Assembly: GCF_041248615.1 (NCBI RefSeq)
Contig: NZ_CP158426.1
Strand: one strand, 5' to 3'
DNA: 64,000 nt
DNA from: Escherichia coli
GTDB lineage: Bacteria > Pseudomonadota > Gammaproteobacteria > Enterobacterales > Enterobacteriaceae
In this document: piece by piece, positions 29,405 through 58,330 of the stretch
Layout of the letters: the number at the start of each line of letters is the position of its first letter
Numbering within the stretch: position 1 is the first letter of the stretch
Notes under the pieces: generated by a model
Databases searched by the model: none
The model's input: the letters and a program-made list of their open reading frames with translations, nothing else
What the model was told of the DNA's origin: nothing
Translations under genes and position numbers: made by a program

Positions 29405-29420
29405 GGCAAAAGGCGTGCCA
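29405..29420 (-). promoter_or_regulatory. Sigma-54 promoter (-24/-12) for lafB operon
   Basis: Reverse strand TGGCAC-GCCTT-TTGCC, perfect GG-N10-GC spacing, ~32 bp upstream of lafB start. Confidence 0.6.
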
Positions 29421-29506
29421 ATATTTTTTATGTGAAAAATCAATAGATTGAAAAACAGGCGGAAATGGTGTTTCCGGTCTGGCGGAAAAAAGCCTGCCGC
29501 TGAAAG

Positions 29507-29567
29507 CACAACACCGCCTGCAGGCGGTGTTGTTCGTGGCCGGATAAGGCGTTTACGCCGCATCGGC
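29507..29567. terminator. Perfect 13-bp-stem palindrome plus REP element downstream of lafA
   Basis: acaacaccgcctg/caggcggtgttgt followed by gccggataaggcgtttacgccgcatcggc. Confidence 0.55.
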
Positions 29568-29577
29568 AAGTCCGCCA

Positions 29578-30926: not shown

Positions 30927-31820
30927 ATGCAAAGCACTATCAGGAAACATTTATCCCTTGCTAAGGTAAACTCAACTATGAGTATTATTATCAACAACTG
31001 GCGGATGGACCCGTCGCTTAATGCCTTAATACATTGCGAAACGGGTGAAACACGTCGTCTCGGCGAATACCATTTTATTTTGCTGGAAACATTAGCAAAA
31101 AATGCCGATGTGGTTTTATCGCGATCTTATTTATGTGCCGAAGTATGGAAGAACCGTATTGTCGGCGGAAATAGCCTGCCGACGGCGATCCATGCGTTGC
31201 GCGTTGCTATCGACGATGATGGCAAACAACAGAACATTATTAAAACAATTCCGAAGAAAGGTTACTTATGCAATAAAGAGTATGTATCTTTGCCGGAGTC
31301 ATCGCCTGCAGAAGCGCTGATTATTACCGACCAGATACAGGATACAGCCCCAGAAGAGATATCTTCGACTACACCGTATGTACCTGTTAGAAAAAAACAT
31401 AAAGGACTGATGGGGTTAGCGTTGGCCGCAGCTGTTATATTGGTTGGCTCAACCGTGGGGTATTCACACTTGAAAAGTACACCTGACGCTCCACAACTGG
31501 TAAAAGAGTCAATCAACAGTCCAAGAATAAAAATATTTCATCTTAGTTCTGGAAAAGAAAATAATTCCGCACCGTTACTGTCACAAACCCTCGCACCAGG
31601 AAAAGACAAACTCGATAATTTATTGTCAGCGCATAATATGACAATGACAACCTATTATAAATATGTTCGTAACCGACTGGAAAGTGATATTGTTCTGCAC
31701 AACCAGTGCAATGGTAGCTGGCAATTAACTTTTAATGTGGATAGCTGGCAGAATAGCGATATTAATAGCGCGATGTATCAGAATTTAGAGAAGTTGTTAA
31801 ATACTGTGCAGAAATGCTGA
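30927..31820 (+). CDS. Membrane-anchored winged-helix regulator (ToxR/CadC-like)
   Basis: N-terminal OmpR-type DNA-binding domain, single TM segment (LMGLALAAAVILVG), C-terminal periplasmic domain; AT-rich, low-GC gene. Confidence 0.6.
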   Translation: MQSTIRKHLSLAKVNSTMSIIINNWRMDPSLNALIHCETGETRRLGEYHFILLETLAKNADVVLSRSYLCAEVWKNRIVGGNSLPTAIHALRVAIDDDGKQQNIIKTIPKKGYLCNKEYVSLPESSPAEALIITDQIQDTAPEEISSTTPYVPVRKKHKGLMGLALAAAVILVGSTVGYSHLKSTPDAPQLVKESINSPRIKIFHLSSGKENNSAPLLSQTLAPGKDKLDNLLSAHNMTMTTYYKYVRNRLESDIVLHNQCNGSWQLTFNVDSWQNSDINSAMYQNLEKLLNTVQKC

Positions 31821-41908: not shown

Positions 41909-41945
41909 TTCCTGCGTCACTCCTGCTTCAATCCGCATACGCTAA

Positions 41946-41960
41946 GCAATCGCCGTGCCA
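41946..41960 (-). promoter_or_regulatory. Sigma-54 promoter for lfgB-L operon
   Basis: Reverse strand TGGCAC-GGCGA-TTGC, perfect consensus. Confidence 0.6.
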
Positions 41961-41989: not shown

Positions 41990-42727
41990 ATGAGTTTTCA
42001 ATTTTGCAGGCGGAAGTTGTTCTTCCTCCTGGTGCTGGCCTTACCGGGCTACGCCGCCGTCCACCCCGTGCAACACAGCGCGCGGGAACAAGTCAACGCC
42101 CAGGTGCTGAATGCCGCGAGCCAGGAAATTGAATCGATGGCGCAGCAACGGCAGTGGCATGACTATCGCTACACCTTTAAGGTCTACATTCCCTCGCAGA
42201 TTGCGACCGCCGCCCCCTGTGCGACAACACCCGGCGTTACGCTCACTTCGCCTGCGGACATCGCCCTCAACCGGATGAACTTCACCGTCAGTTGCCCGCA
42301 AAGCTGGCAGATGAACGTGGCGGTGCGCCCGGATGTACTGGTGCCCGTGGTGATGACAAAGTCACTGGTTGCCCGCGATACGCCGCTCACGGCGAATGAT
42401 GTGGAGTTGAAGCCCTACAACTTCAGCGCCCAGCGGCGGGATGTGTTGATGGAGCTCGATGACGCAATTGGTTTAAGCAGTAAGCACGCGTTGCAACCGG
42501 GCAGGCCCATCACCAAAGAAGAGCTGGTTTCGCCAGTGCTGGTCGAACGCGATCAGCCGGTGATGATTGTTTACCAGAGCGCGGGGATCACCGCCTCGAT
42601 GCCCGGCGTGGCGCTGAAAAATGGCCGCAAAGGCGAGATGGTGAAAGTACGTAACGCAAGCAGCCAGCGGGTCATCAGCGCGATGGTGGCAGAAAGCGGC
42701 GTGGTGACGACGGTAAGCGCGGAGTAA
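41990..42727 (+). CDS. lfgA: P-ring assembly chaperone FlgA homologue
   Basis: 245 aa, signal peptide, divergent from lfgB. Confidence 0.7.
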   Translation: MSFQFCRRKLFFLLVLALPGYAAVHPVQHSAREQVNAQVLNAASQEIESMAQQRQWHDYRYTFKVYIPSQIATAAPCATTPGVTLTSPADIALNRMNFTVSCPQSWQMNVAVRPDVLVPVVMTKSLVARDTPLTANDVELKPYNFSAQRRDVLMELDDAIGLSSKHALQPGRPITKEELVSPVLVERDQPVMIVYQSAGITASMPGVALKNGRKGEMVKVRNASSQRVISAMVAESGVVTTVSAE

Positions 42728-44426: not shown

Positions 44427-45632
44427 TTATACAAAATCTTCATACAGCGTTATTAACTGTGTGATAAAACCCTCTAACGTTAATAATCCCTCCCTGATTT
44501 CCTCCGGATATTTTTTATGAAGAGGGGAAGGTACAACCAAGGTGACACCTTCAGCTCTCATTTCGTTAAATTGAGCAACTGAGACACCCTCTTGTAAGGT
44601 AAACAAATATATTTTGTTGATTTTATTTGCTTCATTGAGTGCCTGACGCCACCGATCCTTACATGTTGTTTTTACAGCAAGCATACGGAGTTTTTCTCTT
44701 GGAAAGTGATCATCATGGTAAGCTGCCGCTGATGGAAAAAGAAAATCGGGTTTCTTTTTTCCTTCAGTAATACATTGAGTAGCAAAATGATGCAGTCCAT
44801 GCTCAATAAAAATTTGCTCAAGATGTAGCTCCAGTGATTTCCCGGCTCGAGATTTTCTTCGATTACTAACAGAGTTAGCCATAGCTATAAAATCATCTAC
44901 AGAACCAAACCCTTGACGGATGATGTCCAGTACGTGAATTTCTTCAACCATTAGAAAGAGATCATATTCAATACGGCGGCGTTCTAAAAGTTGGTCATCT
45001 GGACTGGTTACGCCTGTTGGGTAATAACCCGCAGCATATTGAATAATCTCTAAGCCAGAAGGAAAGCTATGTTTCCAGCTTTCCGGAATAACATATTCCT
45101 TTTGAGAGATTTTTGGCCTTGATGCGAGTACACCAAGTATTTCACTGGCAGGCCCAAACATTAAAGTTCCAGGAATGATCTCCCCAATAGCTGATTCCAG
45201 TACATCCTCTTCTTCTGGGCTAACACAAACCCATACATCAACACTTTTGCTGTCTCTCCCTGGCTCATGTTCAAACGCAAGCACAGACAAAGCACCTGTA
45301 TTTTCCGGATCCTGTAGGGGACTGCCAGCCCCCCACCGAGTGATGCGTTTTTCATTTCTTGTTTGCCCGAAATACTTATTATTGTAGTAAATAGCGCGAA
45401 CCTCACTGTCTACACATTCATGAGAGGAATAAGTTGCGCGCAATAAAACCGAAGGATTTTTTTCTGACGTATGATCTATAGATGGGAAAAGTTCAGCGAC
45501 GATACCAGAAGGGATATATACCCCCACTTGATGCCCTCCTGTTGCACCAGTGTCGTTTGCTGAAAGACGTTTAATATAGAGATAGTTGTTACCACCGACC
45601 TTATCAAGCAGCCAATCTTGTAATCCTGACAT
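44427..45632 (-). CDS. Type IIE restriction endonuclease, EcoRII family
   Basis: 401 aa; N-terminus YIKRLSANDTGATGGHQVG and catalytic domain match recalled R.EcoRII closely. Confidence 0.9.
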   Translation of the reverse strand: MSGLQDWLLDKVGGNNYLYIKRLSANDTGATGGHQVGVYIPSGIVAELFPSIDHTSEKNPSVLLRATYSSHECVDSEVRAIYYNNKYFGQTRNEKRITRWGAGSPLQDPENTGALSVLAFEHEPGRDSKSVDVWVCVSPEEEDVLESAIGEIIPGTLMFGPASEILGVLASRPKISQKEYVIPESWKHSFPSGLEIIQYAAGYYPTGVTSPDDQLLERRRIEYDLFLMVEEIHVLDIIRQGFGSVDDFIAMANSVSNRRKSRAGKSLELHLEQIFIEHGLHHFATQCITEGKKKPDFLFPSAAAYHDDHFPREKLRMLAVKTTCKDRWRQALNEANKINKIYLFTLQEGVSVAQFNEMRAEGVTLVVPSPLHKKYPEEIREGLLTLEGFITQLITLYEDFV

Positions 45633-46521: not shown

Positions 46522-46597
46522 CGCGAATACCTTCCCCATAGCGGAAATGGATTTTCCGCCTGATTCACAATCCTTTGTTTTTGATTATAAAAATTCC

Positions 46598-46613
46598 CGG
46601 CACGCTTATTGCA
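46598..46613 (+). promoter_or_regulatory. Sigma-54 promoter upstream of the unknown 311-aa gene and transferase gene
   Basis: CGGCAC-GCTTA-TTGCA with correct GG-N10-GC spacing; lies inside the ORF-track N-terminus, implying the real start is at 46648. Confidence 0.5.
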
Positions 46614-46647
46614 CATTCCGCAAAGTAATAAAGACTGGAAGCCACCT

Positions 46648-47580
46648 ATGAGTTTTATTGAATGTTACGAACCGGAATACGTGCGCAATTTTATGACGCA
46701 ATATCCCGATTCGCCTTTGTACATCCGCAAGGTGTGGAAAAACGAGATTCGCCAGAGCCTGATGCTGACAGAGCCAGAAAGCTGCGAAGCGGTGCTCAAC
46801 GATGCCAGGGCCTTTGATTTACAGCTCACCTACCGCCCGGCGGAAGATAATGCCGCAGAACTCTCCGCGCGCGATGCGATAGTAAACCAGGTCATTTTGA
46901 GCACCCTTACGCTCCCCGATTTACCCCCGGAGCTTTCACTGTACGCCGTCGGGATTTTGCTCTCCCGCGCCAGCAAAATGCCGGGCAGAGACGGAGATAT
47001 TCTTGCCCGCTTGACGACGCTGCCACAGGCGCTGGCCGATCATGCACAAAAAGGCACGCTACAGGCACAGTTCGCCCAGCTGCCGCCCGTGCCACAGCTG
47101 GCGCGCCAGTTGATGACGCTGCTCGGCAGTTGTGCGTTTGACTGGTCGATTCTGCCGGAAAGCCCGCGCAAAACTTCGCTGCCGTTGCAGATGCCTTTGC
47201 TGGCGCTACATGACGCCAACAGCGAAGCCCTGTTACAACAGCAGCTTCAGGCACAGTGGCAAACCACCTGGCAACAGCATTTTGCCACCGCGCCCTGGAT
47301 GATGCGTAACTGGCTGATTTACCGCGTTTACCATGAGGTGATTGGGCAGGCAGACGGAGCAGATTATTGCCCGCTGGTGTGCGATTTTTATCTTATCCGC
47401 ACGTTAATCAGTTTATGGACGCTGGATGGTTCTCCGCTGCGACAGGAGGATATTTTCGCCCTCTTTGCCATGTTTGAACGCTGGCGAGCCAGTGAAAATG
47501 CTGTGCTGATTCGCCAACAAATTCAGGCTGAACGTTCCGCAGATCCCCTGCTTTATGCGTTTTCACTGCTGTCTTGCTAA
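46648..47580 (+). CDS. Hypothetical protein (311 aa), no recognisable domain; start at MSFIECYEPE
   Basis: ORF with RBS ggaag 7 nt upstream; sits between flgN homologue and the large transferase gene. Confidence 0.5.
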   Translation: MSFIECYEPEYVRNFMTQYPDSPLYIRKVWKNEIRQSLMLTEPESCEAVLNDARAFDLQLTYRPAEDNAAELSARDAIVNQVILSTLTLPDLPPELSLYAVGILLSRASKMPGRDGDILARLTTLPQALADHAQKGTLQAQFAQLPPVPQLARQLMTLLGSCAFDWSILPESPRKTSLPLQMPLLALHDANSEALLQQQLQAQWQTTWQQHFATAPWMMRNWLIYRVYHEVIGQADGADYCPLVCDFYLIRTLISLWTLDGSPLRQEDIFALFAMFERWRASENAVLIRQQIQAERSADPLLYAFSLLSC

Positions 47581-47626
47581 CGCTTTTTGGCCGGTTTTCC
47601 CGGCCTTATCGACTTCGTAAACTATC

Positions 47627-50092
47627 ATGCAAACCCTCATCAAAACACTCGCCACCCAGCGCGAAAAACCGTTCGTCAGCGTCGTCACGCCCACATGGAA
47701 CCGTAGCGCATTCCTGCCGTACCTGCTCTATATGTACCGCTATCAGGACTACCCGGCAGACCGCCGCGAACTGGTCATCCTCGACGACTCGCCGCAAAGC
47801 CATCAGCACATCATCGACCGTTTGACCGATGGCACGCCGGAAGCCTTTAACATCCGCTACATCCATCATCAGGAAAGACTGCCGCTGGGCAAAAAACGCA
47901 ACATGCTCAATGAACTGGCAGTGGGGGAATATATCCTCTGCATGGATGACGACGACTACTACCCGGCAGATAAAATCTCTTACACCATCGCCATAATGCA
48001 AAAACACCGGGCGCTCATCTCCGGTTCCGACCAGATCCCCATCTGGTACAGCCACATCAATCGCATCTTCCAAAGCCGCAGCTTTGGCTCACATAACATC
48101 CTCAACGGCACCTTTTGCTATCACCGTAACTACCTGAAAAAGCACCGTTACGACGATGATTGTAATTTAGGCGAAGAGAAAAGTTTCACCAACAATTTCA
48201 GCGTTAACCCGCTACAACTGCCCGGCGAGCGCACGATTTTGTGTATCTCGCATAGCCACAACACCTTTGATAAAGACTTTATTCTCGGGGCCAGCACGCC
48301 AGTAAACGCGGCGCTTACGGATATCGTCCGCGATCCGCTGCTCCGCAACGCCTATCTGAGTCTGCATAACGCCACTCATCACCAGGCGATCAACCATCAG
48401 GCGATCGATCAGGTCGTACTGATCAATCTGGATAAACGCCCGGATCGCTTACAACAGATCCGTGAAGAACTGGCATTGCTGCATATTCCACCTGAGAAGA
48501 TCACCCGCCTTGCCGCCAGTGAAGATCAAAACGGCCAACGGGGACGACGCCAGTCGCACTTGCAGGCGCTGCGCCTGGCGCAACAGCACGGCTGGCAAAA
48601 CTACCTGCTGCTGGAAGATGACGCGGTTATTCTCAAGCAGGAAAAACATATTCAGGTACTGAACACGCTGCTGGCGAGCCTGGCGAAAATTCCCTGGCAG
48701 GTGATGATCCTTGGCGGCGAAATTTCGCAGGGAACGATGCTAAAAAGTTTGCCGGGGCTGGTGCACGCGCGGGACTGCCGCAAGGTGTGCGCTTATCTGG
48801 TGAACAGCCGCTACTACCCGCAACTGGCGCAGCAGATGAGCAACGATGAGCACTCGCTGGAAGAGTGCTGGCAGCCGCTGCTACACGCCGACAAATGGCT
48901 GGCCTGTTACCCGAGCCTTTGTTACCAGCGACCGGGCTTTAGTGATATCGAGAAAAAAACGACTGACAACATTGCTCACTATTTCAATAAGTTACCCGTA
49001 GCCACCAAGCCATCTACATTACCCATCGCCGATACCATCGGCTTTTTTATGGAAACCTCATTCCACTACGCGCTCTACCGCCCAATCATCACCGCTCTGC
49101 AGGCGCAGGGGCAGAGCTGTACGCTGGTGATCAATGACCGCGTATTTAAACCATTTCTGGATGAAATGCTGGCGACGCTAAAAAGCATTGACGATCCGCA
49201 GCTCAAAGGTATGCGCTTATCTGAAATGCAGGCGCACGGTCAGCGGGTAAAATGCCTGGTCAGCCCCTATCACACGCCCGCGCTCAGTGGCCTGGCAGCG
49301 GTGAACGTCCGCGCCATGTACGGCTTAGCCAAAGAGGCGTGGAACCACGCCGACTGGAATCGTTTTTACCAACGCATTTTGTGTTATAGCCACTACAGCC
49401 AGCAGACACTGGCGCATTTCGGTAGCGCAAAAGTGGTCGGCAATCCACGTTTCGACGCCTGGCATAACGGCACGTTTGCCCGCACTCTGCCGGAAAATAT
49501 TCAACCCGATTCCCGTAAACCTACGGTGCTCTACGCCCCCACGTTTGGCGCATTAAGCTCCCTGCCCCACTGGGCAGAAAAATTGGGGCGCTTAAGCGGT
49601 GATGTGAACCTGATTTGCAAACTGCACCACGGCACCTGCTCGCGCCCGGAAGAAGCTGCATCGCTGGCACTGGCGCGCAGGCATTTAAAACAGCGCACCG
49701 ACTCCGCCCGCCACACGCTGGCGCTACTGGCAAAGGCCGATTACGTGCTGACCGATAACAGCGGCTTTATTTTCGATGCTATCCACGTTGATAAGCGGGT
49801 GATCCTGCTCGACTTTCCGGGCATGAGTGAATTACTCGAAGGCGAGAAAAGCTACTCCACGCCGGAGAGCGCCGATCAGCAAATCCGCGAAATATTGCCG
49901 GTGGCTCATGATATGGCAGAGTTGCGTTACTTGTTGTCAGAGGCGTTTGACTGGGGGGCGGTGCAGGCGCGGCTTACGAAGATTCGTCATCACTATTGCG
50001 ATGCGTTTATGGATGGCAAGGCGGGAGAACGGGCGGCGATGGTGATTGTGGAGGCGCTGGCGGACAAGGAATCGTCAGGGATATGTCGATAA
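47627..50092 (+). CDS. Three-domain transferase: GT2 glycosyltransferase + GT25-like domain + TagF-like CDP-glycerol glycerophosphotransferase domain
   Basis: N-terminal DxD-containing GT2 (CMDDDDYY), central GT25-like (VVLINLDKRPDRL), C-terminal TagF/TagB-type motif (LYAPTFG). Confidence 0.75.
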   Translation: MQTLIKTLATQREKPFVSVVTPTWNRSAFLPYLLYMYRYQDYPADRRELVILDDSPQSHQHIIDRLTDGTPEAFNIRYIHHQERLPLGKKRNMLNELAVGEYILCMDDDDYYPADKISYTIAIMQKHRALISGSDQIPIWYSHINRIFQSRSFGSHNILNGTFCYHRNYLKKHRYDDDCNLGEEKSFTNNFSVNPLQLPGERTILCISHSHNTFDKDFILGASTPVNAALTDIVRDPLLRNAYLSLHNATHHQAINHQAIDQVVLINLDKRPDRLQQIREELALLHIPPEKITRLAASEDQNGQRGRRQSHLQALRLAQQHGWQNYLLLEDDAVILKQEKHIQVLNTLLASLAKIPWQVMILGGEISQGTMLKSLPGLVHARDCRKVCAYLVNSRYYPQLAQQMSNDEHSLEECWQPLLHADKWLACYPSLCYQRPGFSDIEKKTTDNIAHYFNKLPVATKPSTLPIADTIGFFMETSFHYALYRPIITALQAQGQSCTLVINDRVFKPFLDEMLATLKSIDDPQLKGMRLSEMQAHGQRVKCLVSPYHTPALSGLAAVNVRAMYGLAKEAWNHADWNRFYQRILCYSHYSQQTLAHFGSAKVVGNPRFDAWHNGTFARTLPENIQPDSRKPTVLYAPTFGALSSLPHWAEKLGRLSGDVNLICKLHHGTCSRPEEAASLALARRHLKQRTDSARHTLALLAKADYVLTDNSGFIFDAIHVDKRVILLDFPGMSELLEGEKSYSTPESADQQIREILPVAHDMAELRYLLSEAFDWGAVQARLTKIRHHYCDAFMDGKAGERAAMVIVEALADKESSGICR

Positions 50093-54135: not shown

Positions 54136-55759
54136 TGCTGGTGATCCATTGTCTGAGAACTTCGGCTACGCGATCGGTGTCGCTCATGGCCAGTTTTTGC
54201 AGGAACTCGAGTTTTACTTCCAGGCCGGAACTCTGAGACGGCAGGCTGTCATCGCCGGGCAGCGACGGCAGATCGACGTTTTTGCGCTCCTCTTCCGGCA
54301 TGGCAATCCACGGTTCGCTGACGGCTTCCGGTTCTGGTGTGATAACCGGCGCACGCACCGCCATCAGGCGTTTCATTACCGGGCGCACCACAAAGAACAG
54401 CAACAACAGAGCCAGCAGGCCGCAACCAATCAGCCGCACCCAGGCCAGCACGCTGTCATCTTTCCACAGCGGGATCACCGGTTCGACCGGAGCCACCTGC
54501 GGCACAAAGTTCAGCAGCGATAAGGTGAGATTGTCTCCACGTTGCACGTCGATCCCGGCAGCATTGTTCAGCAATGCGGTAAGCTGCGTGGTCTGCTCCG
54601 GCTTCCAGTTTTTCAGCGCCGGAGCGTTTTGATTGAGCACCACCGCCACGTTAAGGCGTTTCACCGCAAATCCGGGATGCTGAATATGCTGGACGCTGCG
54701 GTCGTAAGAGTAATCGCGCTTGCTTTCGCTGTGTTTGGATAACGCTTCCGGCGAGCGATTTTCTTCCGTACCGTTGGTCATCTGATTCGCCGCAACGGGC
54801 GGACGGTTGCTGAGCGAGCCGGGTACGCCCATCGCCACCTGATTAGTGTCGCTGTCCAGCACGTTTTCTTCGCGGTTGATTTTCGGCGTGTCGCCGTAGT
54901 GTTCCTGGGTTTCGTCGATGGTGCTGAGATCGAGATCCGGCATCACGCTGACGCGGTAATTCCCGCTGCCGACCAGCGAATCCAGCACGTTCGCCACGCT
55001 GGCGCGGGTTTTGTCCTGGATGTCTTTGAGGATCTGATCGCGTTTACGGGTTGCGGCAGAAACCGCCTCGCCTGCGCCAATGCCGTCGGTCAGCAGATTT
55101 CCCGCCTGATCGACGACGCTAACTTTGCTGGCGTGCAGCCCCGGAATGCTGCCGGACACCAGATGCACAATGGCGTTCACCTGGTCCATATTCAGCTTCG
55201 CGCCGTAGTGCAGGCGCACCACCACCGAGGCGCTGTTTTGCGGCTCATCGCTGACCACAAACGAACTTTCTTCGTTAAGCGCCAGATGCACCCGCGCACT
55301 CTCCACCGCGTCCAGCGACATAATGCTCTGCGCCAGCTCCCCTTCGAGGCTGCGTTTGTAGCGCACGTTCTGCACGAACTGGCTGCTGCCGAGCACTTCG
55401 TCTTTGTCCATCAGCTCGTAGCCGCTGGGCAATATCGCCTGCACGCCTTTGGCGGCAAGGGTCATGCGCGTTTTCGACAGTTCATCTTCCGGCACCAGAA
55501 TTTGCCCGCTCTGCGGGTCAATGCGGTAGCTGAGCTTTTCACCGTCCAGCACGGTGACAATCTGCGACACGGGCAGATTTTCCTGGCGTCCGTAGAGCGA
55601 GACGTAGCCGCGATTACCGGTCCACAGCACACTAACGATAATCGCCGTCGCCGCAACGGCAAGCCCCACTCCCGCCATCAATGCCCAGCGTTTGTTATCT
55701 GCAAGACGCAGTCGAAACGCCGGAAACGCCTGGGTTAACTTCTTTATTTGTGCATTCAT
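54113..55759 (-). CDS. lfiF: MS-ring protein FliF homologue
   Basis: 548 aa with two TM segments. Confidence 0.85.
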   Translation of the reverse strand: MNAQIKKLTQAFPAFRLRLADNKRWALMAGVGLAVAATAIIVSVLWTGNRGYVSLYGRQENLPVSQIVTVLDGEKLSYRIDPQSGQILVPEDELSKTRMTLAAKGVQAILPSGYELMDKDEVLGSSQFVQNVRYKRSLEGELAQSIMSLDAVESARVHLALNEESSFVVSDEPQNSASVVVRLHYGAKLNMDQVNAIVHLVSGSIPGLHASKVSVVDQAGNLLTDGIGAGEAVSAATRKRDQILKDIQDKTRASVANVLDSLVGSGNYRVSVMPDLDLSTIDETQEHYGDTPKINREENVLDSDTNQVAMGVPGSLSNRPPVAANQMTNGTEENRSPEALSKHSESKRDYSYDRSVQHIQHPGFAVKRLNVAVVLNQNAPALKNWKPEQTTQLTALLNNAAGIDVQRGDNLTLSLLNFVPQVAPVEPVIPLWKDDSVLAWVRLIGCGLLALLLLFFVVRPVMKRLMAVRAPVITPEPEAVSEPWIAMPEEERKNVDLPSLPGDDSLPSQSSGLEVKLEFLQKLAMSDTDRVAEVLRQWITSNERIDNK

Positions 55760-55763
55760 AGGG

Positions 55764-56105
55764 TTAGATCGACATACTCATCAGATCGTTAAATCCGGTG
55801 GCGATTTTGTTGCGCACCTGCACCAGCGCGGAGAAAGAGAGCGACGCCTGCTGGCTGGCGATCATCGCACCTGCTAAATCATCACTTTTGCCCGTGTCGA
55901 TAGCTGTTTGCTGCTGCTCCGCCACCTGCTGGAACTGGTCAACGTGACCGAGCGCGCCGGACATAATGCGGTTAAACGAAACGTCCGGGTCGGTGGAACT
56001 GAAGGCCATGGCGGGCAGCACCGGTGCCTGGGCGTTGGCCTGCATCCGCTGCACGTCCTGCATGATTTGCGCCTGCATGGTGCTGTTGATTGTGGTAATG
56101 CTCAT
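55764..56105 (-). CDS. lfiE: Basal-body protein FliE homologue
   Basis: 113 aa, conserved C-terminus. Confidence 0.75.
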   Translation of the reverse strand: MSITTINSTMQAQIMQDVQRMQANAQAPVLPAMAFSSTDPDVSFNRIMSGALGHVDQFQQVAEQQQTAIDTGKSDDLAGAMIASQQASLSFSALVQVRNKIATGFNDLMSMSI

Positions 56106-56119
56106 TTTTAACTTCCGGG

Positions 56120-57106
56120 TCAGGAGAAAACTTCGATACCTTGCTTGCGCATGGAGGCCAGTCGATAGCGCAGTGCGCGCGGGGTAATGCCTAACAGGTC
56201 GGCAATTTTGCTGCGGTTGCCCTGATATTTACGCATCAGGTCGGCGATATATTGATACTGGGCGCTACGTCCGGCCTGGCCTAAATCGCTGGTTTCCGCA
56301 ACAGATACGGAGGGCTGAACAGGCCATTGCAGTTCACTGTGATCGGCAACGTCTATTTCCGGCAGGCCTAAGGCATCCGGGAAAATCACGCCGTCGCGAT
56401 TTAAAATCATTCCACGCTGAATGGCGTTCTCCAGCTGGCGCACGTTGCCGGGCCAGCGGTAATTGAGCAGCGCCCGGCGAGTAGATTCTGAAAGGGTGAT
56501 ATTTTTCACCAGCACTGTGGAGTATTTTTTAATAAATGACTCTGCCAGCGGGATAATATCGTTCAGGCGTTCACGCAGCGGCGGCATGGTAATAGGAATA
56601 ACCGCCAGACGATAATAGAGATCTTCACGAAAACGCCCGGCGGCGACTTCCTGCTCAAGGTTTTTATTGGTGCAGGCAATCAGGCGAAAATTGAGTTTAA
56701 TTTGTCGGTTACTGCCTAATCGCTCAACCTGCTGTTCCTGCAATACGCGTAATATTTTGGCCTGTAGCGCCAGCGGCATATCGCCAATTTCATCGAGCAA
56801 TAAGGTGCCGTTATTCGCCAGTTCCATTTTTCCTGGCACGCTGGCAATTGCGCCGGTAAATGCGCCTTTGTCGTAGCCAAATAAGGTAGATTCCAGCATG
56901 TTTTCCGGGATCGCCGCGCAGTTCACGCCGATATAGGGCGCGTTATCATTTTCACCAAAGGCTACGGTGTGAATATATTTCGCCACGCATTCTTTGCCCG
57001 CGCCGGTTTCGCCCTGAATGAGCACCGGCACGTTAAATGCGGCGACACGCTTTGCCAGAGTAAAAGCGTTAATGCTGGAAGCGGCAGTTGCAATAAGTTC
57101 AGACAT
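56120..57106 (-). CDS. lafK: Sigma-54-dependent transcriptional activator lacking an N-terminal receiver domain
   Basis: AAA+ domain with Walker A (GETGAGKE) and GAFTGA motif, C-terminal HTH; only 328 aa, in-frame stop upstream. Confidence 0.8.
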   Translation of the reverse strand: MSELIATAASSINAFTLAKRVAAFNVPVLIQGETGAGKECVAKYIHTVAFGENDNAPYIGVNCAAIPENMLESTLFGYDKGAFTGAIASVPGKMELANNGTLLLDEIGDMPLALQAKILRVLQEQQVERLGSNRQIKLNFRLIACTNKNLEQEVAAGRFREDLYYRLAVIPITMPPLRERLNDIIPLAESFIKKYSTVLVKNITLSESTRRALLNYRWPGNVRQLENAIQRGMILNRDGVIFPDALGLPEIDVADHSELQWPVQPSVSVAETSDLGQAGRSAQYQYIADLMRKYQGNRSKIADLLGITPRALRYRLASMRKQGIEVFS

Positions 57107-57260
57107 AGGGTGAACGATATAAGTAGCGACAGAAAACAGGATGTTCTGAAGCGTATCACCGGCGGGATTAACAAGTTCGAATTAAACGATAATAAAAATA
57201 TTATTTGATGGTAAACAATTAGTTAGATATTAATACTGTTAATTTGGACATCTGTGATGC

Positions 57261-57300
57261 CCCCTCACCCTAACCCTCTCCCCGGATGGGGCGAGGGGAC
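57261..57300. repeat. GC-rich palindromic repeat unit
   Basis: cccctcaccctaaccctctccccggatggggcgaggggac; inverted copy at 63737-63762. Confidence 0.6.
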
Positions 57301-57478
57301 AGACCGCAGACTGATTGGCGAAAATCACTCCCATTAAGCAATTAATCGATTAATTATTTTTTCATCCTATTAATAATTTGCCCCTTTCACTCCCCCTCTA
57401 TTTAATACCTCACCTTGTGTCACTGCCTGATTTGCGTGCACAAAATCGCCCATACCATTACAGCAGAGAAAGTAAGCC

Positions 57479-58330
57479 ATGCTGAAGTACAGTAAAACGC
57501 CAGGCATCTTTAAATTAGAAGGTAATCGGCTCGGACGCCCCTACCATCGCCTGCCGACCCTGTTCACGGGGAATTTTGACGTGATTGATTCGCATCTTGG
57601 CAGCTACTTTCTCAAAAAGCATCGCAGCAATATCACCTTAAAAAAGATTGGCTGCGAAATGGATATCATTAATAAAAACGCCGAGCTGATGGTTTCCCAG
57701 GTCGGGCATCTGGCGTTTGATATTGATCGCTCCTTGCTGTTAATGCTGCTGGGCAATTTTTATGGTCTGGAGTCGTCTCTTGAAGAGGCGAAAGACCATA
57801 ATGGCCTGCCGACCAAAACCGAAACGCGGTTAAAGAACCGCCTCGCGCTGGATATCTGTACGCTGATTTTTAATCTGCAAACCTCCGGTATTGCGCTGAA
57901 ATTAAAGCTGGATAGCAGCACGGTGATTACCCACTGGGCGTATCAATTAACCTTTACCCTCGCGGGTGATGAAGAGAGCAGTTTTCGTATTTTGCTCGAC
58001 GACGCCCATACCGATTTTATTTTAAATCTGATCCGCCACAGCGAGCACAGTAAACCGCAGCAGGTGGCGAAATCCGTTAATAAACCGGCCCTGATTAAAG
58101 AAATCATCCGCTCCCTGCCGTTGACTCTGAACGTCAAAATCGCCGAGCTGTCGCTGAATGTCGCGGATCTCACGCAGATAAAAGCCGGGGATATTTTACC
58201 CATCTCGCTGGGAGAAACGTTCCCGGTGGCGATTGGGCAATCTGAATTATTTAGCGCCCTGATTGTGGAAGACAAAGACAAACTGTTTTTGTCGGAGCTG
58301 GCGGGCAAAAATGAGAATAGCCATGAGTAA
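57479..58330 (+). CDS. lfiM: Switch protein FliM homologue
   Basis: 283 aa, C-terminal SpoA-like domain. Confidence 0.7.
   Translation: MLKYSKTPGIFKLEGNRLGRPYHRLPTLFTGNFDVIDSHLGSYFLKKHRSNITLKKIGCEMDIINKNAELMVSQVGHLAFDIDRSLLLMLLGNFYGLESSLEEAKDHNGLPTKTETRLKNRLALDICTLIFNLQTSGIALKLKLDSSTVITHWAYQLTFTLAGDEESSFRILLDDAHTDFILNLIRHSEHSKPQQVAKSVNKPALIKEIIRSLPLTLNVKIAELSLNVADLTQIKAGDILPISLGETFPVAIGQSELFSALIVEDKDKLFLSELAGKNENSHE

Follow-up and report, generated by a model that had tools for sequence, protein, structure and literature searches.

LafK of the Escherichia coli Flag-2 locus: a sigma-54 activator without an N-terminal domain and a candidate enhancer at its putative target promoters

Introduction

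LafK of Vibrio parahaemolyticus is reportedly the lateral flagellar sigma-54 activator, as described by Stewart and McCarter in 2003 and by Kim and McCarter in 2004, and LafK of the Flag-2 system of E. coli 042 is said to have been treated by Ren et al. in 2005. To our knowledge, the conditions switching on Flag-2 in E. coli have been found by no one, though the system is widespread in Enterobacterales.

Francke et al. (2011) grouped LafK with PspF and HrpR/S as type Ic activators with no signal domain (PMC3162934); the missing signal domain of LafK is thus already on record. RpoN sites have been reported at flgB2 and lafB in V. parahaemolyticus (PMC9817140). The Flag-2 genes of E. coli EC958 are intact yet silent in laboratory culture (PMC4637896), and reports that such a system is expressed or used are confined to Yersinia enterocolitica and Plesiomonas (PMC11420993).

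The lafK gene and its product

The window, i.e., the whole stretch of E. coli DNA analysed here, comprises 64,000 nucleotides. The strand of lafK was absent from the initial annotation; the gene lies on the minus strand. Its features are as follows.

56120..57106, minus strand: lafK coding sequence, sigma-54 enhancer-binding protein without an N-terminal domain, 328 aa (open reading frame list, Pfam)
56591..57091, minus strand: Sigma54_activat (AAA+) domain PF00158, aa 6-172 (Pfam, E=2e-64)
56369..56575, minus strand: AAA_lid_14 domain PF25601, aa 178-246 (Pfam, E=1e-19)
56156..56257, minus strand: Fis-type HTH_8 domain PF02954, aa 284-317 (Pfam)
56990-57013, minus strand: Walker A motif GETGAGKE, aa 32-39 (translation)
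56849-56866, minus strand: GAFTGA, the sigma-54-contacting loop, aa 81-86 (translation)

The start codon is ATG (open reading frame list), and the product corresponds to WP_001589739.1 in the annotation of NZ_LT599825.1, with a 100% match to that E. coli sequence. LafK is a bacterial enhancer-binding protein, consisting of an AAA+ domain with Walker A and B motifs and an arginine finger, the GAFTGA loop and a C-terminal HTH. According to the initial annotation, the frame opens directly at the AAA+ domain; Sigma54_activat indeed begins at aa 6 of 328, and aa 6-172 cover positions 3-167 of the 168 in the PF00158 profile. The central domain with GAFTGA and the C-terminal HTH, also proposed there, are recovered alike by Pfam and by the translated motifs. 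Walker B (LLLDE, aa 102-106) and the R-finger (REDLYYRL, aa 160-167) are intact in the translation, and the HTH segment GITPRALRYRLA is nearly invariant in the alignment of orthologues. From these intact motifs, LafK is predicted to be a catalytically competent, domain-minimal activator.

The Flag-2 locus and the region upstream of lafK

In the annotation of the matching E. coli genome, the gene order is lfhAB-lfiRQPNM / lafK-lfiEFGHIJ. The following features surround lafK or belong to the same locus.

55764..56105, minus strand: lfiE, FliE-like, beginning 14 nt past the lafK stop
57107..57478, no strand: divergent intergenic region between lafK and lfiM, 372 bp
57182..57184, minus strand: TAA stop in frame with lafK, 26 codons before the ATG
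57479..58330, plus strand: lfiM, FliM-like, heading the divergent lfiMNPQR-lfhBA operon
30978..31820, plus strand: lafZ, 280 aa, with Trans_reg_C at aa 25-97 (Pfam) followed by a hydrophobic stretch (translation)

Since lfiE begins only 14 nt past the lafK stop, lafK probably heads the lafK-lfiEFGHIJ operon. No Flag-2 feature of this strain is flagged as a pseudogene in the annotation, and a restriction-modification insertion lies within the locus, which is apparently intact on this chromosome. Most of the region is contained in 1268 E. coli genomes, and lafK of Flag-2 is found in about one quarter of complete E. coli genomes.

The in-frame stop reported upstream of lafK is present as the TAA listed above. 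The 25 sense codons between it and the lafK ATG include no ATG, GTG or TTG, so an earlier start is impossible. The intergenic region has a G+C content of 41%, against 52% in lafK, and contains stop codons in all three frames. It had been suggested that a receiver remnant could persist in another frame of the roughly 370 bp upstream of the gene. No receiver similarity was found in 57107-57478: six receiver-type N-termini used as tblastn queries on 56900-57700 (800 bp around the lafK start) returned noise only. The same six queries gave nothing at E<=1 against the whole window, which holds no receiver-like open reading frame, and only noise was obtained by tblastn from the corresponding intergenic regions of Citrobacter, Atlantibacter, Hafnia and Budvicia.

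These results also bear on the idea that a sequencing error, a frameshift or a wrongly assigned start conceals a receiver domain, an error that the initial annotation had named as capable of overturning its reading. The length gap to Vibrio LafK is the one observation that speaks for such an artefact. The stops in three frames, the tblastn noise here and in four other genera, the presence of most of the region in so many E. coli genomes and the chimeric or frameshift-fused nature of the long database matches reduce its probability almost to nothing, and sequencing error as an explanation of the short LafK is ruled out.

The sigma-70 consensus has no match within the intergenic stretch, and neither a sigma-54 site nor the CGGAAR-N5-YTTCCG palindrome described below was found 5' of lafK or lfiM. 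The intergenic sequences of five genera are too diverged to footprint in alignment; an A+T-rich block 60-140 nt 5' of lafK is common to E. coli and Citrobacter only. An Rfam scan of 55600-57700 yielded nothing except a sub-threshold chance match to a eukaryotic antizyme frameshift element, located on a G+C-rich hairpin.

Short LafK in Enterobacterales

Orthologues of 324-348 aa with 60-99% identity occur in Citrobacter, Leminorella, Atlantibacter, Hafnia, Budvicia, Pantoea, Regiella and others, and within E. coli LafK is about 96-99% identical and of equal length. In E. coli, Citrobacter, Atlantibacter, Hafnia and Budvicia, lafK is flanked by fliE(L) on one side and by the fliM(L) operon on the other; the same order extends beyond Enterobacterales to Pseudomonas fragi, Thaumasiovibrio and V. 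parahaemolyticus.

Homologues of equal length had been named in the initial annotation as grounds against its reading, and the closest homologues, in all Enterobacterales examined, do share this length. Judging by these lengths, the short form is ancestral in enterobacteria and the usual, conserved one, and no oddity of the present gene. The earlier interpretation is thus supported in part: the LafK identity, the missing domain and the PspF-like build stand. The architecture of lafK by itself therefore matters little, this being an ordinary annotated Flag-2 gene.

Among apparently longer relatives, three sequences that are 68-71% identical and include a receiver or an ACT domain (P0058, P0071, P0078) were rejected as chimeric metagenome assemblies joined at REDLYYRL, and two more (P0009, P0011) as frameshift fusions to FliE or FliG.

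The dN/dS ratio of lafK is 0.04-0.11 in the three computable pairs, whose dS of 2-5 is at or near saturation; seven further pairs are saturated. On these values lafK looks to be under purifying selection. The opposite view, that lafK is a truncated remnant of an eroding, non-functional cluster, could draw on the frequent statement that E. coli Flag-2 is deleted or does not function (PMC4481668; PMC6993521) and on its undetected expression in EC958 (PMC4637896). It is nevertheless very improbable, given the constant length and architecture of LafK across the whole order, the low dN/dS in the computable pairs, the intact catalytic motifs and HTH, the lack of pseudogene flags in Flag-2 and the conservation of the promoter-palindrome modules. 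Flag-2 as a whole may be conserved and yet unexpressed in this strain.

Long relatives and the pseudo-receiver

Syntenic long LafK proteins carry 110-144 additional N-terminal residues in V. parahaemolyticus (443 aa), other Vibrionaceae (family range 441-461 aa; Thaumasiovibrio, 445 aa), Shewanella (431-439 aa) and P. fragi (468 aa). E. coli LafK 1-328 pairs with residues 122-437 of V. parahaemolyticus LafK (49% identity, E=2e-109), leaving 0 residues N-terminal of the alignment in E. coli versus 121 in V. parahaemolyticus, and LafK 5-245 pairs with FleQ 149-387 (E=1e-64). Both alignments bear out the earlier statement that the N-terminal domain of these proteins is absent here. Being missing from LafK of all Enterobacterales examined, a receiver-like domain is no defining trait of the enterobacterial subfamily.

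A profile of the N-terminal domain of long LafK matches the FleR receiver (E=5.5e-12) and CheY (E=3e-11) in the PDB. The AlphaFold model of the Vibrio domain has a pLDDT of 87 and (beta-alpha)5 topology, and Foldseek places it at TM 0.8 to the receivers of LuxO, NtrC1 and NtrC4. This domain has Ser in place of the phospho-acceptor Asp and also lacks the acidic pair, the Thr and the Lys. As modelled, the Vibrio domain is a CheY-fold pseudo-receiver and no working phospho-receiver, so its loss in enterobacteria need not have cost a signal input. In a neighbour-joining tree built without support values, LafK groups with the syntenic lateral activators, and the short proteins form one monophyletic clade nested within the long ones. 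Judged from this nesting and the alignments, the domain-less state of enterobacterial LafK arose through receiver loss.

Candidate target promoters of LafK

Sigma-54 sites with at most one mismatch lie 32-37 nt 5' of three operon starts (lafB, lfgB and a 310-aa open reading frame designated hyp310), and each is preceded by a palindrome of the form CGGAAR-N5-YTTCCG.

41945..41960, minus strand: sigma-54 promoter-like TGGCACGGCGATTGCT, 37 nt 5' of lfgB, perfect pattern match
42011..42027, no strand: palindrome CGGAAGTTGTTCTTCCT, 51 nt 5' of GGCAC of the lfgB promoter, centre at about -85, candidate LafK enhancer
29405..29420, minus strand: sigma-54 promoter-like TGGCACGCCTTTTGCC, 32 nt 5' of lafB (fliD-like)
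29460..29476, no strand: palindrome CGGAAATGGTGTTTCCG, 40 nt 5' of GGCAC of the lafB promoter, centre at about -74, candidate LafK enhancer
46598..46613, plus strand: sigma-54 promoter-like CGGCACGCTTATTGCA, 35 nt 5' of hyp310, which is followed by a glycosyltransferase gene
46542..46558, no strand: palindrome CGGAAATGGATTTTCCG, 40 nt 5' of GGCAC of the hyp310 promoter, centre at about -74, candidate LafK enhancer

Sigma-54 sites were judged by their position relative to gene starts, the sole informative criterion, since their number over the whole window (41, with about 45 expected by chance) is uninformative. A loose sigma-28 pattern gave too many matches to be of use. Exact copies of the palindrome number two in the window against about 0.015 expected by our own calculation, and both are at these promoters. 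The 10-kb flanks of lafK in Hafnia, Citrobacter and Budvicia stop short of lfgB; conservation of the promoter module was for this reason measured by scanning a genome collection. The palindrome and sigma-54 arrangement has 72 matches in 100,044 species genomes. Twenty-eight of them lie directly 5' of lafB, lfgB or hyp310 homologues in Enterobacterales and Vibrionaceae, and the arrangement precedes lateral-flagellar operons in roughly 24 species. At these 28 lateral sites the gaps fall into two groups, of 40-43 and of 51-55 nt, which differ by one helical turn, whereas in the remaining 44 matches they spread evenly over 35-56. A perfect sigma-54 site, with GGAAACTAAATTTCT at equal offset, also precedes fliD of P. 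fragi. No description of this palindrome was found in the literature searched.

Position relative to sigma-54 promoters is a correlative link between the palindrome and LafK; it is a candidate site, and another factor could bind it. We lean slightly towards the palindrome being the LafK enhancer, kept in phase on the helix at 40-43 or 51-55 nt before GGCAC. The same reading holds that this element is common to lateral systems with short LafK (Enterobacterales) and with long LafK (Vibrionaceae), that the pseudo-receiver was shed with DNA specificity and promoter architecture kept, and that Flag-2 is a pure LafK-dosage switch. If this is true, the LafK regulon, including the flagellin-modification operon, is predictable from sequence alone.

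The palindrome may instead be owned by another regulator (e.g., LafZ or a nucleoid protein), with LafK acting elsewhere on the DNA or from solution. Helicobacter FlgR is a flagellar activator working without an enhancer (cited in PMC3162934), and only one clear palindrome is present per promoter, though such activators act as hexamers. We regard this as unlikely, as the palindrome keeps helical phase with the sigma-54 promoter and recurs at lateral-system sigma-54 promoters in both long- and short-LafK lineages, and LafK keeps its DNA-binding domain, with a nearly invariant HTH.

A proposed model of Flag-2 regulation

The gene is probably a standard enterobacterial lafK encoding a functional, domain-minimal sigma-54 activator, the first gene of lafK-lfiEFGHIJ in an apparently intact Flag-2 locus. 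The conserved HTH of LafK would dock on CGGAAR-N5-YTTCCG about 74 or 85 nt before the sigma-54 start sites, and the GAFTGA loop with ATP hydrolysis would remodel the sigma-54 holoenzyme there. The putative targets are lfgB, leading the rod and hook genes; lafB, leading a stretch that runs from the filament cap gene to the sigma-28 gene lafS and the stator genes; and the operon of the 310-aa open reading frame and the glycosyltransferase.

By analogy with PspF, HrpR/S and receiver-deleted NtrC1/DctD, short LafK would be constitutively active. NtrC is among the activators that require their receiver to assemble. Because lafK lacks a sensory domain and its own sigma-54 promoter or palindrome, output is most likely set by the amount of LafK made from the A+T-rich lafK/lfiM divergent region, and the choice to build Flag-2 should fall there. 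Candidate inputs to this region are ToxR-like LafZ, nucleoid silencing and temperature; LafZ, with its N-terminal OmpR/ToxR-type winged helix, is proposed as an upstream regulator from its domain content. Gating at lafK transcription, suggested in the initial annotation, fits the absence of a sigma-54 promoter or palindrome 5' of lafK and the silence of EC958.

Control could alternatively be post-translational, with a partner protein or a ligand (e.g., c-di-GMP on the AAA+ domain), and not expression level, holding short LafK inactive. Precedents exist in other domain-less or pseudo-receiver activators (PspA-PspF, HrpV-HrpS and FleN-FleQ). The degenerate EAL protein LafV acts with LafK in V. 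parahaemolyticus (PMC9303241), and intact but silent Flag-2 genes in EC958 (PMC4637896) would suit such a block. However, no PspA-, HrpV- or FleN/FlhG-like gene is found among the annotated Flag-2 genes, and the window has no receiver-like open reading frame. As for c-di-GMP, the FleQ segment just upstream of the AAA+ domain contributes to its binding; LafK begins approximately where the FleQ AAA+ alignment starts, so this segment appears to be absent. Post-translational control is a possible but doubtful account, compatible with the preferred explanation of LafK as a functional, domain-minimal activator.

If control lies in LafK dosage, forced expression of lafK alone should suffice to activate the operons for rod and hook, for cap and sigma-28, and for modification. 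The conserved palindrome offers a concrete mutable site and a route to LafK regulons across genera.

Comparison with known systems

PspF and HrpR/S, like LafK, consist of AAA+ and a C-terminal HTH with no N-terminal domain, and LafK aa 4-235 pair with PspF 8-239. These proteins are not orthologous to LafK, which is matched best in the PDB and NCBIfam by FlrC, NifA and FlbD, ahead of PspF; PspF and HrpS also differ in having a partner of the PspA/HrpV type, while none is annotated at the Flag-2 locus. FleQ and FlrA are flagellar sigma-54 activators with an unphosphorylated degenerate receiver, like long LafK; FleQ keeps about 144 aa N-terminal of the aligned part, whereas E. coli LafK has 0.

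LafK of V. parahaemolyticus resembles that of E. coli in where its gene lies, ahead of fliE(L)FGHIJ and transcribed away from the fliM(L) operon, in the same AAA+ motifs and in an HTH that hardly differs. Both systems have sigma-54 promoters at flgB(L) and fliD(L), and the palindrome-promoter module is also present in Vibrionaceae. The 121-residue N-terminal pseudo-receiver and the motY(L) gene preceding lafK are found in V. parahaemolyticus only, and E. coli has neither. LafK of E. coli 042 and other enterobacterial Flag-2 systems (De Maayer et al. 2020, PMC6993521) is the same gene, with the same locus architecture and the same length.

The lafK gene and its product

The Flag-2 locus is annotated from lafU (23252) to lfhA (63708), and none of its genes, lfgC included, is flagged as a pseudogene, so that expression tests could reasonably be run in this strain; in E. 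coli 042 lfgC is reported to be disrupted (PMC4637896). The E. coli NRZ14408 chromosome (NZ_LT599825.1) carries the region at 100% identity. Of 5426 complete E. coli genomes, 1408 have a match, and in 1268 most of the region is present. At lafK, lfhAB-lfiRQPNM diverges from lafK-lfiEFGHIJ, an arrangement known from E. coli 042 and from Enterobacterales generally (PMC6993521). LafK here is the Flag-2 LafK orthologue, the same gene as in E. coli 042, and probably heads the lafK-lfiEFGHIJ operon, since lfiE starts 14 nt past the lafK stop.

Features of lafK and its product
56120-57106, minus strand: lafK ORF, 328 codons, ATG start (ORF list)
Residues 6-172: sigma-54 interaction domain (Pfam, profile positions 3-167 of 168, E=2e-64)
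Residues 178-246: AAA+ lid (Pfam)
Residues 284-317: Fis-type HTH (Pfam)
Residues 32-39: Walker A, GETGAGKE, intact
Residues 81-86: GAFTGA, intact
Residues 102-106: Walker B, LLLDE, intact
Residues 160-167: arginine-finger motif, REDLYYRL, intact

Judged by its sequence, LafK belongs to the sigma-54 enhancer-binding proteins and would work like them. The named NCBIfam equivalogs (NifA, FlbD and PspF among them) match it only below threshold, and each of these matches enters the model at its central domain. In frame 5' of the ATG there are 25 sense codons, none of them ATG, GTG or TTG, preceded by TAA (57182-57184); a longer product is impossible because of this stop and the lack of a start codon after it. 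The Pfam layout, the stop and the missing alternative start confirm the initial annotation of a short LafK without an N-terminal domain, of which the position and length stand; the one correction is the strand, which is minus and had not been given.

Between lfgA and lfgM the Flag-2 locus also holds the two genes below; restriction-modification cargo is already on record for Flag-2 variable regions (PMC6993521).
42915-44339, plus strand: DNA cytosine methyltransferase gene
44427-45632, minus strand: type II restriction endonuclease gene

Short and long forms of LafK

The short length is no peculiarity of this gene. Homologues of equal length had been named as a refuting result for the initial annotation, and the closest homologues do have equal length. 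The best 120 database relatives (60-99% identity) are 324-348 aa long with the same three domains, and come from Citrobacter, Leminorella, Atlantibacter, Scandinavium, Pseudescherichia, Budvicia, Pantoea, Hafnia, Pragia, Regiella and others. The same gene order and a short lafK, preceded by an A+T-rich gap of 434-641 bp, are found in Citrobacter, Atlantibacter, Hafnia and Budvicia. The dN/dS of lafK was 0.04 for E. coli and Citrobacter, 0.11 for E. coli and Atlantibacter and 0.06 for Atlantibacter and Hafnia, ratios that are rough because dS is at or beyond saturation in every pair (2-5 in these three computable pairs, full saturation in the other seven).

The few longer database entries are artefacts. 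P0058, P0071 and P0078, which look like LafK joined to a receiver or ACT domain, are chimeras of metagenome assembly: an NtrC- or TyrR-like N-terminus gives way to LafK sequence at the conserved REDLYYRL, and surveys of domain architecture could be misled by such entries. In P0009 and P0011 a frameshift has fused LafK to FliE or FliG.

Among representatives of 50%-identity clusters, the matches to LafK are mostly proteins of 440-480 aa (45-52% identity), in which the match begins near residue 125-150. True lateral-flagellar orthologues were picked by genomic context:
Thaumasiovibrio: LafK of 445 aa, motY-lafK-fliEFGHIJ
Pseudomonas fragi: LafK of 468 aa, fliM operon divergent from lafK-fliEFGHIJ
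Vibrio parahaemolyticus: LafK of 443 aa, motY-lafK-fliEFGHI

Further search gave lengths of 441-461 aa in Vibrionaceae and 431-439 aa in Shewanella. E. coli LafK 1-328 aligns with residues 122-437 of V. parahaemolyticus LafK (49% identity), and FleQ has ~144 residues N-terminal of the block aligned with LafK. In a neighbour-joining tree of the shared region (no support values), the short enterobacterial proteins form one clade that falls within the long forms, with the long P. fragi protein as its sister. Because of this nesting, loss of the N-terminal domain in the Flag-2 ancestor is the simplest reading.

Met1 of E. coli LafK aligns exactly with the Met of KPMANIVAE (residue 122 of V. parahaemolyticus LafK, P0408), a segment conserved in Vibrio at the boundary of the pseudo-receiver and AAA+ domains. 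A short Vibrio isoform made from an internal start is conceivable.

The missing pseudo-receiver

Profile search, structural modelling and Foldseek all assign a receiver fold to the N-terminal 121 residues of Vibrio LafK. The profile of 21 long-LafK N-termini matches the solved receivers of FleR (E=5.5e-12) and CheY (E=3e-11), and those of LuxO, NtrC1 and DctD as well. The AlphaFold model has (beta-alpha)5 topology with a mean pLDDT of 87, and Foldseek returns the LuxO, NtrC1 and NtrC4 receivers at TM ~0.8. The phospho-acceptor Asp is replaced by Ser, and the acidic pair, Thr and Lys are also replaced. The Pfam receiver model stays below threshold in Thaumasiovibrio LafK (26.8 vs 30.2 bits), and no Pfam receiver match is recorded for V. 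parahaemolyticus LafK. Since the phospho-site residues are lost and the Pfam score is below threshold, the missing part is a pseudo-receiver of the FleQ/FlrA kind and no working phospho-switch. Francke et al. (2011), citing Vibrio work, placed LafK in one class with PspF and HrpR/S, that of enhancer-binding proteins "lacking a separate signal recognition domain" (PMC3162934). The degenerate receiver probably explains this classification of Vibrio LafK.

In Foldseek the Vibrio pseudo-receiver is structurally closest to the "inactive state" receivers of NtrC1 and NtrC4. NtrC1 or DctD without the receiver is constitutively active; by analogy, receiver loss could have made enterobacterial LafK constitutively active.

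Remnants of a receiver in another frame, suggested earlier as a possibility, were not found. The 372-bp region 5' of lafK (41% G+C vs 52% in the gene) has stops in all frames, and tblastn with six receiver-type N-termini gave nothing above noise there, no match at E<=1 over the whole 64-kb window and no remnant in the equivalent regions of Citrobacter, Atlantibacter, Hafnia and Budvicia. These results rule out a sequencing error, a frameshifted remnant and a receiver encoded by a separate gene of the locus.

Sigma-54 promoters and a candidate LafK enhancer

The sigma-54 pattern TGGCAC-N5-TTGCW is no more frequent in the window than expected by chance; three of the best sites lie 32-37 nt 5' of start codons of co-oriented operons:
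41945-41960: lfgB, perfect pattern match
29405-29420: lafB (fliD-like)
46598-46613: 310-aa ORF (hyp310), followed by a glycosyltransferase gene

RpoN sites have been reported at flgB2 and lafB of V. parahaemolyticus (PMC9817140). All three promoters share CGGAAR-N5-YTTCCG, 51 nt (lfgB) or 40 nt (lafB and hyp310) upstream of GGCAC, with the centre near -85 or -74. Both exact copies in the window are at these promoters (~0.015 expected, own calculation); the lfgB copy has one mismatch.

One genome per species (100,044 species) was scanned for the palindrome followed, after 35-56 nt, by GGCAC-N5-TTGC. Of 72 matches, 28 (roughly 24 species) lie directly upstream of lafB, lfgB or hyp310 homologues. 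The module occurs in Enterobacterales (Pseudocitrobacter, Enterobacter, Pantoea, Budvicia, Pluralibacter, Rahnella, Citrobacter, Buttiauxella, Rosenbergiella, Izhakiella and Escherichia whittamii) and Vibrionaceae (Grimontia, V. rotiferianus and four Photobacterium), and P. fragi has the same arrangement 5' of fliD. Gaps at the 28 flagellar sites are 40-43 nt in 16 and 51-55 nt in 11, clusters one helical turn apart; those of the remaining 44 are evenly spread over the allowed range. The lineages that share the module have a nearly invariant LafK HTH. On the most economical reading the palindrome is the LafK enhancer, to which LafK is predicted to bind.

In variable region 1 the hyp310-glycosyltransferase operon (46542-50092) is preceded by a sigma-54 promoter of its own and by the palindrome seen at lfgB and lafB, and this module is kept in Pseudocitrobacter, Citrobacter and Escherichia whittamii. 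Presumed flagellin-modification genes would then be co-regulated with hook and basal-body genes.

Among the non-flagellar matches, those in a Desulfobacterales MAG (L064) and an Acidobacteria MAG (L082) have a gene for a LafK-like enhancer-binding protein (38-41% identity) <1.5 kb upstream. This co-occurrence could be due to chance or to an unrelated activator with a similar site.

Three elements lie in the lafA-lafB interval (29483-29570): the REP-like GCCGATGCGGCGTAAACGCCTTATCCGGCC, the hairpin CACCGCCTGCAGGCGGTG and, 23 nt upstream of the main palindrome, another, imperfect one, CGGAAAAAAGCCTGCCG. This imperfect palindrome is also present in Citrobacter, Pseudocitrobacter and E. whittamii and may serve as an additional activator site or belong to the lafA terminator.

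Control of LafK

LafK appears not to drive its own operon, because the lafK-lfiM intergenic region contains neither a sigma-54 site nor the palindrome. This agrees with the LafK-independent fliM(L) operon of V. parahaemolyticus (PMC3930126) and the sigma-70-dependent class I lateral genes of Aeromonas (PMC4481668). A sigma-70 scan of the same region gave no strong consensus match, and Flag-2 of E. coli EC958 is unexpressed under laboratory conditions (PMC4637896). Gating of Flag-2 had been proposed at lafK transcription or by an anti-activator. These observations, together with the missing sensory domain, favour transcriptional control; an anti-activator could hold LafK inactive, but no PspA-, HrpV- or FleN-like gene is present among the annotated genes of the locus.

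The inputs to lafK are a matter of speculation. One candidate is LafZ (30978-31820), whose N-terminal winged helix is of the OmpR/ToxR type and precedes a hydrophobic stretch; others are nucleoid silencing of the A+T-rich upstream region and low temperature, for which a Yersinia precedent is cited in PMC11420993.

A G+C-rich palindromic element, GTCCCCTCGCCCCATCCGGGGAGAGGGTTAGGGTGAGGGGGC, occupies 57255-57312 in the lafK/lfiM intergenic region, its only copy in the window. The equivalent regions of Citrobacter, Atlantibacter, Hafnia and Budvicia lack it, and in Rfam it has only a chance sub-threshold match. It resembles a small intergenic repeat that has inserted into the regulatory region.

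Comparison with known systems

The finding is already known, since the gene, its name and the domain-less class have been published. Two modest, testable additions may be new: the cryptic receiver fold of Vibrio LafK, cleanly lost in Enterobacterales, and the phase-locked palindrome-promoter module conserved in both lineages. The literature searched contained no description of a LafK site, and earlier remarks on the site or domain may exist. ATPase activity, palindrome binding and constitutive activity are predicted properties of E. coli LafK. PspF and HrpR/S have the same architecture but are not its orthologues. The Vibrio prototype carries an N-terminal pseudo-receiver, whereas E. coli and all enterobacterial LafK lack it, and this domain is the one defining feature in which E. 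coli LafK departs from the prototype.
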